From an uncultured archaeon (GTDB lineage: Archaea > Aenigmatarchaeota > Aenigmatarchaeia > GW2011-AR5), in contig CAYJMB010000001.1 of assembly GCA_964371455.1 (NCBI GenBank), positions 1 to 55,800 of the forward strand: a stretch of 55,800 nt of DNA, in the 5' to 3' direction. The position numbers were made by a program, and so were the translations under genes. Every line of letters starts with the position of its first letter. The first letter of the stretch is position 1. Below the pieces are notes generated by a model. It had not been told where the DNA came from. It saw only the letters and a list, made by a program, of their open reading frames with translations, and searched no databases. Positions 18,659-22,325 of the stretch are shown here, in pieces.

Positions 18659-19747
18659 ATGTACGATGCTATATTTGTTGGCGGCGGCGTTGCCGGCTGC
18701 TACACAGCAAGCCTGCTTCCCAAGCATTTGGACACGCTGGTGCTGGAAAAGGACAAAAAAATCCGGCTGAAGGACAGCGGCATAGTGTCCACGCGCTTTG
18801 ATTCTTTTGTTCAAGAGCCCAGACTCATTAAAAACAAGGTGGATGAGATAGAGTGCATCTCGCCTTCTGGCAAAGCGTTCTCGCTGAAGAGCAGAGAACC
18901 GTTTATTTACATTCTAAAAAGAAAGAAATTTTCCCGTTATCTGAGACAGAAAGCAAAAGAACGCAGCACCTTTAAATGCGAGAACGTTCTTGAAGTCATT
19001 CGGAGGAAAGACTGCGTCACTGTGAGAACAAAAGAAGGCGAATACGATGCAAGAATAGTTGTGGGTTGCGATGGCGCGAACTCTATGGTGCGCAGGAGCA
19101 TGGGCATCAAGCCGCCTATCTTATCTGCAGGCATAATGGTCAAGACAAAAGAGAGGATGGCTGATAAAATAAAGGTGTTCTTTAACAAATATTATTCACC
19201 AGACTATTTTGCCTGGGTCATCCCACAGAATCGCGAATACGGCCTGATAACAGCGAAGCGCCCAAGGGAATATATGAATTATTTTGCTGCCAAGCAAAAG
19301 CTGCCACAGGGAAAGATGTACGCTTATCTTGTGCCTATGGGGATCACGGGAAGCTACGGCCATAGAACTTTACTGATAGGAGATGCGTGCGGCCAGAACA
19401 AGCCTCTGACTGGCGGCGGCATAATGTTCTCCCTTACTGCTGCAAGATTTGCCGCAGAGATAGTAAAAGATGCGTTTCAAGCAAATACATTTTCTGCTGT
19501 CTTTCTAAGCCATTATGAACGATTATGGAAATCACAGTTGCAGAAAGAAATAACCAGGCAGGAGCTTGTAAGAAAAATATACAGGAAACTCACAAACAAT
19601 GATATAGACAGACTGTTTGACGACTTCGGCGCGCACATAGAGATGCTTACCGGGTTTGATTACGACAAATTCAGCCTCTCGTCAGAAAACCTGCCAAAAT
19701 GGAAACTCTTCAAGTTCGCTATTGCAAATGCACGACATTTATTTTGA
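18659..19747 (+). CDS. Geranylgeranyl reductase-family FAD-dependent oxidoreductase
   Basis: It has an N-terminal YDAIFVGGGVAGC dinucleotide fold, GCDGANS, and GDACGQNKPLTGGGI, the pattern of archaeal lipid or prenyl reductases. Confidence 0.75.
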   Translation: MYDAIFVGGGVAGCYTASLLPKHLDTLVLEKDKKIRLKDSGIVSTRFDSFVQEPRLIKNKVDEIECISPSGKAFSLKSREPFIYILKRKKFSRYLRQKAKERSTFKCENVLEVIRRKDCVTVRTKEGEYDARIVVGCDGANSMVRRSMGIKPPILSAGIMVKTKERMADKIKVFFNKYYSPDYFAWVIPQNREYGLITAKRPREYMNYFAAKQKLPQGKMYAYLVPMGITGSYGHRTLLIGDACGQNKPLTGGGIMFSLTAARFAAEIVKDAFQANTFSAVFLSHYERLWKSQLQKEITRQELVRKIYRKLTNNDIDRLFDDFGAHIEMLTGFDYDKFSLSSENLPKWKLFKFAIANARHLF

Positions 19748-19796
19748 CATCCTATTCATTGTCGGCAATCTTATAAAGATTTAAATTGAATCTCAG

Positions 19797-20993
19797 ATGA
19801 TAACGTCTAAATCAGGTGCTTTGATGAACTTTCCCAGCATGCTGAAAAAATACTGGCCTGCAGCGATTGTTCTTGCAATAGTAGTGCTCGGGCTTTATGT
19901 CAGGATTTTTGACTACAGGTTTCCATACCTGCGCAACATAGACTCCTATGCATTCACAAGACAGATTGAAGATGTTGCCAACAATGGTTACCTGCCACAG
20001 CACGATGACATGTCCCTTGCGCCAGCAGGGCAGGACAGGCCTCTGGGGAGAGACCTGTACGTGTACATCATGGCTTACAGCTTTAGTTTTGTGAAGTTCT
20101 TTATCCCTGACTATACCCTGTTCCAATTCCTGATATGGGCACCTGCCTTTATGGCGGCTCTCATGGCAATACCTATGTACTATATAGGCAAGACATTTTA
20201 CGACAGGCGTGCAGGAATACTGGCTGCATTTTTTATTGTCTTTGACATAACAATACTTTCAAGAACACTTGGCGGAGATCCTGACAATGACACTTCGGTC
20301 ATGCTGTTCCCGCTTATAGCCATTGCTCTGTTCCTGCTCGCGTACAAATATACCAATGAAAAAGGCTTTACAAAAAAAGGAATTTTGTATACGGCGCTGG
20401 CTGGCATAGGGCTGGGTGCATGGGGCTATATCTGGAGCGGGTTTTGGTTTGTGATATGGCTCATAGCAGGATTTATCATTGTCAAGATACTCATGAAGCT
20501 CGTTAAGAACAGAAACATAACTGCGATCAAAGGGCTGAAACGGCCGATATTTCTTTTTGCAGCCATGATGACAATATTTTTTGTACTCACTGTGCCGTTT
20601 TTAGGCTCAAGAGTGATTACAGAGACGGTGCAGGGGCCTTTCTCTTTCGGGGATATAAAAAGCGAAGAAAACAGGGAATTTCCCAATGTTTACGTATCTG
20701 TGGCAGAGCTGCAGTCTGGGGGCGGCGTGCGTGAAATCCTGCAGAGGACAAACACGTACCTCTTTATTTTCATGATATTTTCTCTGATATATCTGGCTGT
20801 TTCAGCACTCATGAAACGGGAAGAGCATATTGATACATTCATACTTCTGCTGATATGGTTTGTGGGGCCGCTGATTGCAACAGGCATAGGCATCAGATTT
20901 GCTGTTTTGTTTTCTGCACCTATTGCTATTGGCTCTGCTATATTCATTTCCAAAATATTCAGAATAATTGACGGCGAAGGGGCTGCAGACTAA
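19797..20993 (+). CDS. aglB: Oligosaccharyltransferase AglB/STT3, N-terminal membrane part (ends at in-frame TAA)
   Basis: It has multiple TM segments, an EL1 acidic motif (LRNIDSYAF...NNGYLPQHDD...AP.G) and a second acidic motif (GGDPDNDTS). Confidence 0.7.
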   Translation: MITSKSGALMNFPSMLKKYWPAAIVLAIVVLGLYVRIFDYRFPYLRNIDSYAFTRQIEDVANNGYLPQHDDMSLAPAGQDRPLGRDLYVYIMAYSFSFVKFFIPDYTLFQFLIWAPAFMAALMAIPMYYIGKTFYDRRAGILAAFFIVFDITILSRTLGGDPDNDTSVMLFPLIAIALFLLAYKYTNEKGFTKKGILYTALAGIGLGAWGYIWSGFWFVIWLIAGFIIVKILMKLVKNRNITAIKGLKRPIFLFAAMMTIFFVLTVPFLGSRVITETVQGPFSFGDIKSEENREFPNVYVSVAELQSGGGVREILQRTNTYLFIFMIFSLIYLAVSALMKREEHIDTFILLLIWFVGPLIATGIGIRFAVLFSAPIAIGSAIFISKIFRIIDGEGAAD

Positions 20994-22325
20994 ATGGTTA
21001 ACAAATATCTAGGGAGTGCTATTGGCAGTATAGTGTTTATGGCTGCAGTGTTCCTTGTATACATTGTTTTGTCGTTTCCGTTAACTTATGCAATAGGCTT
21101 TGCAGTGGCGTTTCTGGCTTATATTCCGGCTCTTTACTTTGCCAGCAAGATGGCAAATTTCACAGAGAAAAATTTCACAGATATAACATTCCTGCATCTC
21201 ACTGCAGCAACAATTTTGCTGGCATTTACCTTCTTTAATATGATATTTTTGCTTGTTGTTATCCTCATAGTTGCAATAGCATTCGTGGTAATGAAGACAT
21301 TTTCTATCAGAGATCTTCTAAAGACACTGTTCATGTTTATCATTGTCTTCATAGCAGCGACAACATCTTTCCAACCTGCTGTTGCAATATCAGCTGGCCA
21401 GGGAACAGTGCTCAGCGACAACTGGTGGAACTCACTGAACTGGATAAGGAACAACACAGAAACATGCGCTGTTGTTGCGACATACTGGGACCCGGGGCAC
21501 TTCATCACAGGCATTGCCAAAAGGCCAGTTGTATTTGACGGTGCGTCGCAGAATGCGCTGTGGAATATAACTGCAGCTGCAGGCCTTTCAGACGAAGAGA
21601 TAAGAGAAATAGCGGCGAGCGAGAAGTTCAGGGCAACAAACGTCACTGTTAACGGAGAGGCAAAAACACTTATAGAGACGGCCAGGATACAGGATATAGC
21701 AGCAACGCTGTCAACGGACAACGAGACATTGGCGATAAAGATACTGGAAAAATACAGGAAGCCCGGGTGCGATGAGGTGTATTACCTCGCAACTGCAGAC
21801 CTTGTAGGGAAAAGTTTCTGGTGGACATACTTCTGGTCATGGAATCCCATTGACAAAGGATGCGCGACTCCTATGTCACAGATGGGACTGAGGCAAGCCA
21901 GACCTTCAACAACGGGAGGCATAACTTATGTTTACGAGGGCGGAATCCCAGCAGGCTGCAACAGACAGGCACCAGGACAGGTGATAATCAACCAGCAGAA
22001 CGAATCCTTGCAGGCATTTGTCCTTCGTGGCAACCAACTTGAGCCGGTGGAGCAGTTTGTTTATTTCACTAACCAGGGCGGTATACTCAGAACCCAGCCC
22101 AATGCGCCTGTAAAGGGCATGATCTTCATGGAGCCGAACAGACAAGGAGTTATTTTCATCCCAGAAGAGATCAAAGATTCTATGTTTACAAAGATGTTCC
22201 TCTTCAATGGACAGGGGCTGGAGCGCTTTCAATTTGTGGATTCCTGGGGCGGGGAGATAAAGTTGTTTAGGATAAGATTTAACAACGCGACAGCTAACAT
22301 CACTATGCTTCATAGTTTGCTCTAG
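20994..22325 (+). CDS. aglB: Oligosaccharyltransferase AglB/STT3, C-terminal part with WWDYG-type motif
   Basis: It has further TM segments, then a VATYWDPGHFI (WWDYG-variant) motif and a soluble C-terminal domain. It starts with an ATG directly after, and in frame with, the TAA of the preceding ORF. Confidence 0.7.
   Translation: MVNKYLGSAIGSIVFMAAVFLVYIVLSFPLTYAIGFAVAFLAYIPALYFASKMANFTEKNFTDITFLHLTAATILLAFTFFNMIFLLVVILIVAIAFVVMKTFSIRDLLKTLFMFIIVFIAATTSFQPAVAISAGQGTVLSDNWWNSLNWIRNNTETCAVVATYWDPGHFITGIAKRPVVFDGASQNALWNITAAAGLSDEEIREIAASEKFRATNVTVNGEAKTLIETARIQDIAATLSTDNETLAIKILEKYRKPGCDEVYYLATADLVGKSFWWTYFWSWNPIDKGCATPMSQMGLRQARPSTTGGITYVYEGGIPAGCNRQAPGQVIINQQNESLQAFVLRGNQLEPVEQFVYFTNQGGILRTQPNAPVKGMIFMEPNRQGVIFIPEEIKDSMFTKMFLFNGQGLERFQFVDSWGGEIKLFRIRFNNATANITMLHSLL

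Follow-up and report, generated by a model that had tools for sequence, protein, structure and literature searches.

The window analysed here is a 55,800-nucleotide stretch (positions 1 to 55,800 of contig CAYJMB010000001.1, GenBank assembly GCA_964371455.1) from an uncultured archaeon of the Aenigmatarchaeota, and the subject of this work is a pair of adjacent genes within it, aglB-N and aglB-C, which appear to encode the two parts of an oligosaccharyltransferase (OST) of the STT3/AglB/PglB type, the kind of enzyme that links glycans to proteins. The source genome is an 886-kb metagenome-assembled genome (MAG) in 124 contigs that is 73% complete, and the host is a DPANN archaeon. The two open reading frames (ORFs), 19797..20993 (398 aa) and 20994..22325 (443 aa), share one frame and meet at gca gac TAA ATG gtt, where the TAA occupies positions 20991-20993 and the ATG positions 20994-20996. 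An earlier reading of the sequence alone (the sequence-only reading) had described two same-frame ORFs parted by TAA-ATG, and the sequence and the ORF list confirm that description, with a sum of 841 aa. Four options were left for the stop codon, namely a genuine two-subunit enzyme, stop-codon read-through, a recent nonsense mutation or pseudogene, and an assembly error, with the first singled out as a rare natural split of STT3.

The first gene encodes what is predicted to be the OST membrane core. Its product matches the Pfam STT3 family PF02516 at 93.3 bits (gathering cut-off 24.5; E 3e-26), and in a genome-wide search the match to PF02516 crosses the stop codon and covers model positions 23-397 of 405. 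No other locus in its genome scores for PF02516. The family TIGR04154 (archaeosortase-A-associated AglB) matches the N chain only, at 95.3 bits against a curated cut-off of 450, and the pair is accordingly classed, on this score, outside that subfamily. The acidic motifs of external loop 1 (EL1) and of the DxD type that the sequence-only reading had assigned to this ORF are indeed present, since NIDSY and GGDPDND align to their counterparts in STT3A; in the alignment YLRNIDSY and LGGDPDxD are conserved in the clade, and both motifs are kept across 27 N chains. The VSVAE of EL5, which resembles the eukaryotic SVSE, is one that we take to be an SVSE/TIXE-type motif. The catalytic Asp has its equivalents in D47 of AglB/Stt3 and D56 of PglB (PMC7226087), and the Arg of GIRF may, from its position, correspond to the Arg that binds pyrophosphate (R375 of PglB, R404 of Stt3; PMC7226087). 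The extent assigned earlier to the N ORF stands, but the gene probably starts further in. There are two candidate starts, an ATG at 19797 (398 aa) and an ATG at 19824 that corresponds to M10 (389 aa), and the second is probably the conserved one because it is preceded by AGGTG (19814-19818) and the nearest homologues are 389-390 aa long.

The second gene supplies the external sequon-binding domain. A segment of its product, ATYWDPGHFITGIA, which is nearly invariant in the clade, can be aligned with the part of human and canine STT3A that carries WWDYG; the YWDPGH noted earlier as a WWDYG-type motif pairs with WWDYG in this alignment. In this genus the chain opens with a lineage-specific extension of about 100 hydrophobic residues that is missing from the short C chains L005, L008, L013, L020 and L028 and partly present in others; the shortest C chains are 298-337 aa long and have one transmembrane helix (TM). 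The extension in the window is the longest among the aligned C chains, and it is fast-evolving, with 42-43% identity to the nearest relatives versus 78-82% for the rest of the chain. A polar loop within it, ANFTEKNFTD, carries two N-x-T sequons.

The alignment comprised 48 sequences. Besides 23 N chains and 21 C chains, it included the window's two chains linked through a single Gly, one relative with a fused gene and two with in-frame halves. An AlphaFold2 model of the joined chains, built from this alignment, had a mean predicted local distance difference test score (pLDDT) of 85.8 and a predicted TM-score (pTM) of 0.83. The top 19 Protein Data Bank (PDB) matches of this model in Foldseek were all PglB, AglB or STT3 (E 2.5e-19 to 2e-13), the best being PglB 6gxc (E 2.5e-19), with AfAglB 7e9s at E 7e-18 and yeast and human STT3 also present; the matches extend over the entire joined model. 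In the model, TM1 (residues 12-37) is followed by EL1, by the eight helices TM2-TM9 (108-283), by EL5 (about 290-317), and by TM10 (320-338), TM11 (342-364, with the GIRF Arg) and TM12 (366-392). The cut lies at 398/399, and TM13 (504-534) and the external domain (541-842) come after it. By this model the cut falls within the cytoplasmic loop that links TM12 to TM13, so that 12 membrane helices precede it and TM13 follows, and the modelled pair has the fold features of the STT3/AglB/PglB group of type C glycosyltransferases (GT-C; CAZy family GT66): 13 membrane helices, long EL1 and EL5 loops, and an external alpha/beta domain. One trait of the OST family, a catalytic unit made of a single polypeptide, is absent here and in 28 of the 29 same-order genomes described below. 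The acidic residues of catalysis lie on chain 1, together with EL5 and the Arg that is the candidate for pyrophosphate binding; chain 2 has TM13 and the sequon pocket with its WWD motif (motif roles from PMC7226087). This map over both chains agrees with the earlier statement that catalysis needs residues from both halves. Coordinates of the features are collected in the table.

Table. Features of the aglB-N/aglB-C locus (window coordinates; aa, residue numbers within the chain named).
Feature	Position	Strand	Basis or remark
AT-rich TATA-box-like stretch (ttataaag atttaaat)	19771..19786	+	Upstream of N gene; candidate archaeal promoter of the pair, by inference from sequence
aglB-N, predicted OST membrane core (TM1-TM12, EL1, EL5)	19797..20993	+	PF02516; TIGR04154 partial; stand-alone homologues; AlphaFold2 helices
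NIDSY, catalytic Asp49 at TM1/EL1 border	19935..19949 (N aa 47-51)	+	Aligned to EFDPY of STT3A
GGDPDND, DxD-type metal-binding motif	20271..20291 (N aa 159-165)	+	Aligned to GSYDNE of STT3A
VSVAE in EL5	20694..20708	+	FPNVYVSVAEL conserved in all N chains; low-confidence model loop 290-317, TM9-TM10
GIRF in TM11	20889..20900	+	A(V/I)RF conserved in all aligned rows
Cytoplasmic C-terminal tail of N chain, DGEGAAD (...IIDGEGAAD)	20970..20990	+	Clade consensus TGEDKxxxD then stop; 27 N chains aligned
Gene junction TAA ATG	20991..20996	+	0-nt spacer, both genes in same frame
aglB-C, 443-aa second chain: extra membrane helices, TM13, external sequon-binding domain (predicted)	20994..22325	+	tblastn; alignment to 23 C chains; AlphaFold2 and Foldseek
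Predicted N-terminal peptide of C chain, MVNKYLGSAIGSIVF (or Met-less form)	from 20994	+	
Lineage-specific N-terminal extension of C chain (aa 1-100; 2-4 extra membrane passes)	20994..21293	+	Alignment, hydropathy, model
TM13 equivalent	21309..21395 (C aa 106-134)	+	Sole membrane helix common to all C chains; model helix 504-534
YWDPGH, WWDYG-type motif	21483..21500 (C aa 164-169)	+	Aligned to WWDYGY of STT3A; W-D kept; binds sequon +2 Ser/Thr by family role
RIQDIAATL helix at place of DK/MI motif	21684..21710	+	ARIQDIATTL conserved in clade; assignment uncertain, by inference

Evidence for a natural split comes from relatives of the window. The joined protein was used to search 41 related genomes, followed by a set of 151 from the class, and every junction was read by script. 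Among the same-order genomes with both halves on one contig, 28 of 29 have the gene broken at the same site, and so do two metagenome contigs of the same genus-level group (L042 and L043). The sequence-only reading had said that its genuine split would fail if all relatives carried an uninterrupted gene, and the outcome was the reverse. The N gene of these relatives ends in TGEDKxxxD and a stop codon, and a start ATG, whose presence the sequence-only reading had proposed to check, always comes after the stop, mostly within a few bases. TAA, TAG and TGA are all used at the junctions of the clade, and the C gene may be in frame 0, +1 or +2 relative to the N gene, with about 8 of 30 in frame, which is the chance expectation (one third). 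Spacers in most relatives measure -4 (an ATGA overlap; L016 and L027), -1, 0, 1, 2, 4, 5 or 10 nt; this range of -4 to +10 nt covers about 21 of 30 relatives, and a minority have spacers of 13-75 nt. In one relative, G016, a gene for a 181-aa S-adenosylmethionine-dependent methyltransferase (PF08241, E 1.6e-21; L009:2660-3204) lies between aglB-N and aglB-C.

The junctions of the nearest relatives read TAA-ATG (G001/L022, 88% identical), gatTAAaaATG (L043, 82%) and gacTAATGgaa (L042, 79%, on a 369-kb contig). Since they differ, the in-frame arrangement in the window is accidental and read-through is not conserved. The in-frame TAA-ATG, which is also found in G001, G004, G018 and G019, is best seen as one of many equivalent tight junctions with no special meaning. 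G001 is an independent groundwater MAG from another project (JACQNX010000047.1), and its junction is identical to that of the window. Because nearly all relatives have two adjacent conserved genes, the stop codon reads as a real inherited gene boundary and not as an error or the mark of a dying gene. The spacer of another relative (L033 in G026) holds a direct duplication of ggttttaaaaatgattgatggaaa, which includes the start region of the C gene, together with two in-frame TAA stops. In G052, G112 and G117 (family f14) the matches to the N half and the C half are on different contigs, and in G117 both lie well inside their contigs, which raises the possibility that aglB-N and aglB-C are unlinked there.

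Both genes are under purifying selection. The ratio of nonsynonymous to synonymous substitution rates (dN/dS) between the window and G001 is 0.083 for the N gene (395 codons) and 0.194 for the C gene (first 191 codons), and between L042 and L043 it is 0.094 and 0.134, respectively; these closer pairs were used because synonymous sites are saturated between the window and L042 or L043.

We consider it highly probable that the window holds two real genes that arose by an ancient fission of aglB in the TM12-TM13 loop, and that their co-transcribed and translation-coupled chains assemble into a two-chain OST. Under this model, aglB-N and aglB-C would be transcribed together as a bicistronic mRNA, and a ribosome terminating at the TAA would re-initiate at the adjacent ATG to yield matched amounts of both chains. 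The TM1-12 core and the chain of TM13 and the external domain would then come together in the membrane, without a covalent link, as an OST of the STT3 fold, and the predicted enzyme would move the lipid-linked glycan made by the downstream gene island onto Asn-x-Ser/Thr. Termination-reinitiation is known in archaea and bacteria for gene pairs with overlaps or few-base spacers, and subunits of heteromeric complexes are over-represented among the products of such pairs (PMC6728339, PMC10666635). Once the genes lie about 20 nt apart, coupling is lost (PMC10666635). The two genes are co-directional and separated by 0 nt, within the overlap or spacer of less than about 10-20 nt at which coupling is expected (PMC10666635). 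Coupled translation is therefore proposed from the missing spacer here and the tight spacing of most relatives. By reading of the sequence, the TATA-box-like stretch ahead of the N gene has no counterpart just upstream of the C gene. A scan of the locus for sigma-70 promoters and terminators, which is unsuited to archaea, gave nothing above shuffled expectation. A purine-rich GAAGGGG located 12-18 nt 5' of the C start might be an internal Shine-Dalgarno sequence, although the same bases encode the conserved G-E-D/G, which confounds this reading.

Several observations weigh against this model. The C chain has no significant match in Pfam or NCBIfam, with AglB core-domain scores that are sub-threshold only, and its identity therefore rests on the alignment to STT3A and on the fold. 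Its WWDYG motif is the variant YWDPG, near-invariant in the clade, and the DK/MI motif is unclear, since the ARIQDIATTL helix has no Lys at the DK position and its IxxIxxxL pattern resembles MxxI. The residues just after the cut (aa 399-498) were modelled with low confidence (pLDDT 51-70), and the AlphaFold2 model cannot prove assembly because it was built on an artificial fusion. In about one-quarter of the relatives the spacer measures 13-75 nt, beyond the published limit for coupling (PMC10666635), so coupling is not universal in the clade. Co-transcription, translational coupling, assembly and enzymatic activity are steps that we infer; what the data show directly is the gene boundary with its conservation, the purifying selection on the two halves, the motifs and where the cut falls in the fold. 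The split pair may also not be the sole OST-like enzyme of the cell, given a second GT-C protein with a WWDYG-like motif. This 484-aa protein is encoded elsewhere in the same genome, outside the window (C4:9079-10533, + strand); its membrane part matches PMT_2 (PF13231, E 5e-6), and its C-terminal MLWIKENTPPNATILSDWSWGHWITG (...SDWSWGHWITG...) gives a weak alignment with the stretch around WWDYG in Pyrococcus furiosus AglB (2zag, E 0.006). Similar frames of 450-490 aa in G001, G013, G020, G008 and G035 match it weakly, and from its sequence it may be a very short AglB-like paralogue.

An alternative that deserves some consideration, although we think it unlikely, is that both genes are genuine but their products no longer make up a single enzyme. 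In such a case the C chain would be a free membrane-anchored sequon-binding protein, and the N chain would work by itself or together with some other protein, for which the 484-aa GT-C protein is a candidate. The presence of that second WWDYG-like protein is compatible with this idea, as are the variable extra membrane helices gained by the C chain and the matching of the halves to different contigs in the three genomes of another family (G052, G112 and G117). Against it, adjacency and tight spacing are kept in almost every genome of the order, the halves co-occur, and the catalytic and sequon-binding motifs are all retained. In addition, two lineages (L034, and L044 with L045) appear to have re-fused the halves into one ORF, which implies that the halves still worked together.

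A different possibility is that the TAA is read through or recoded to give a single 842-aa AglB, so that the split is only apparent in this genome. The ORFs are in frame without a spacer, and the same in-frame TAA-ATG in four relatives might be taken to suggest such an event; accidental read-through at a low level is also conceivable. The halves lie in other frames in about two-thirds of the relatives, however, including those 79% and 82% identical, the share in frame is that expected by chance, an ATG always follows the stop, and a methyltransferase gene separates the halves in G016. TAA ends 175 of 470 long ORFs in this genome (37%), and the tRNA scan, in a 73%-complete MAG with only 21 tRNAs found, revealed no tRNA with a UUA anticodon. 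As TAA is an ordinary stop and no such tRNA was seen, recoding is unsupported, and read-through of this kind is quite improbable. An alternative genetic code was rejected by the stop-codon usage and the tRNA scan. ARAGORN with introns allowed made one tRNA-selenocysteine call (anticodon tca), which is probably spurious in an incomplete MAG.

A recent nonsense mutation in a decaying pseudogene would have a lone in-frame stop within a normally single-chain enzyme as its classic signature. The break is common to an order-level clade and beyond, however, dN/dS is 0.08-0.19 on both halves, the catalytic motifs are intact, and a conserved tail precedes the stop and a conserved ATG follows it. Stand-alone N-chain proteins of 386-468 aa form at least 207 clusters among 5.8 billion proteins searched, with members from NCBI, JGI, ENA and Logan assemblies, and the exact 398-aa N product is on record from 3 contigs. 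Because of these clusters from four independent data sources and the exact product, both a pseudogene and an assembly error are very unlikely. The latter is the least credible explanation of all: the source is a fragmented MAG, but an identical junction is found in the independent MAG (JACQNX010000047.1), the product recurs on the 3 contigs, and the boundary is present in more than 30 other assemblies.

Returning to the reading of an inherited gene fission, its age can be gauged from loci elsewhere in the class. Twenty further loci of the class were classified by profile hidden Markov models (HMMs), and 16 of them were single ORFs of 687-875 aa while 4 were split at the same HMM positions. In a quick maximum-likelihood tree of 42 joined sequences, rooted at the midpoint, a clade with 98% support comprised 26 rows from the window's own order and families f12 and f14, with 23 split and 3 fused. 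Since the split extends across the order and two further families, it predates the order. Apart from this clade, one split pair (f10) sits within a group of fused genes, and at least four state changes are needed. Single-ORF AglB genes nested among split relatives are those at L034:235-2406 (G030; 724 aa), L044 (G058; 826 aa) and L045 (G046; 875 aa). At the place of the GEDK tail and stop of its relatives, fused L034 reads YHKEDKSN, and this KEDKS relic at the join indicates that L034 is probably a secondary re-fusion; the same probably holds for L044 and L045. The simplest history would have a single ancient fission at the root of the large clade, re-fusion on two occasions within it (L034; L044 and L045) and another fission in f10, although the number and direction of events are provisional because they come from a quick tree with midpoint rooting.

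It is possible, and we offer it tentatively, that the TM12-TM13 loop is a recurrent evolutionary seam of STT3-type enzymes that, inside a single archaeal class, was cut at least twice independently (in the ancestor of the order and the two families, and in f10) and rejoined at least twice. Much of the Aenigmatarchaeota would then depend for N-glycosylation on an obligate two-chain catalytic OST, in which the second chain would serve as a semi-autonomous reader module and could freely acquire extra membrane helices, 2-4 of them in this genus.

The genes around the pair fit into a wider pathway. Directly downstream are genes for a flippase of the Wzx/MurJ type, two nicotinamide adenine dinucleotide (NAD)-dependent epimerases/dehydratases, two glycosyltransferases (GTs) of family GT9 and one of family GT2; upstream are SecD/SecF and a flavin adenine dinucleotide (FAD)-dependent reductase. 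From this gene content, the pair appears to stand at the head of an island for glycan synthesis. In the closest relatives it has the same neighbours. The reductase (362 aa; 18659-19747) matches FAD_binding_3 and, weakly, Lycopene_cycl, and is syntenic at L042:912-2000 and L043:452-1540. It may be a polyprenol/geranylgeranyl reductase that acts on the lipid carrier.

To our knowledge, the catalytic unit is one polypeptide in all characterised STT3, AglB and PglB enzymes. A full-text literature search returned no description of a split AglB or STT3, although the main phylogenetic survey of AglB (Nikolayev et al. 2020, Mol Phylogenet Evol) lay outside that search and may mention one; the matches for 'split' concerned Alg13/Alg14. 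Archaeoglobus fulgidus AglB-L (3WAJ, 3WAK, 5GMY, 7E9S) and other archaeal AglB proteins share with the pair the fold, the 13 core membrane helices and an external beta-rich domain. They further share the catalytic Asp and the DxD, EL5 and WWDYG-type motifs, a total length of about 840 aa and a glycan gene cluster. The pair differs from them in being two polypeptides cut between TM12 and TM13, in the extra helices that open chain 2, in the YWDPG variant and in an identity of only about 15%. Campylobacter lari PglB (3RCE, 5OGL, 6GXC) is the best structural match (TM-score 0.65 normalised to the target) and represents the single-subunit type of OST without accessory subunits, but it is one chain, is bacterial, has an MxxI motif and has a different external domain. 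The eukaryotic STT3 proteins (yeast Stt3, human STT3A and STT3B) are the best sequence matches in the PDB (E 2.7e-8), and D49, DxD/E and WWD align; there a single chain sits inside a multi-subunit complex, whereas here the catalytic subunit itself is divided. The fused AglB proteins of other Aenigmatarchaeota families (for example L050-L063, 687-870 aa) are full-length homologues from the same class of organisms. They are single ORFs with a short TM12-TM13 loop and represent the ancestral state or, in L034, L044 and L045, a re-fused one.

The nearest published analogy is provided by Alg13/Alg14 and EpsE/EpsF, which are split forms of a MurG-like glycosyltransferase that is fused in some lineages and has undergone repeated re-fusions (PMC8993221, PMC4973528). 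As with the aglB pair, the catalytic and membrane parts of an enzyme of a glycosylation pathway are encoded by separate genes in some lineages and by a fused gene in others. Unlike the aglB pair, Alg13/Alg14 and EpsE/EpsF are GT-B and not GT-C enzymes, and a soluble domain is split from a membrane anchor with no cut inside a polytopic enzyme.

In automated annotation the N chain is called 'hypothetical' or 'STT3 domain-containing protein' and the C chain is assigned no domain, and as a result surveys of N-glycosylation in DPANN archaea can miss or miscount AglB. STT3, AglB and PglB have been treated as indivisible chains in which the membrane domain and the external WWDYG domain together make the active site. 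A natural two-chain form that is found across an order and kept under selection would indicate that the covalent TM12-TM13 link is dispensable. The TM12-TM13 loop may then be a permissive cut site that could be used for engineering split or modular oligosaccharyltransferases, and the pair would offer a natural system in which to study mutual recognition between the membrane core and the sequon-binding head.

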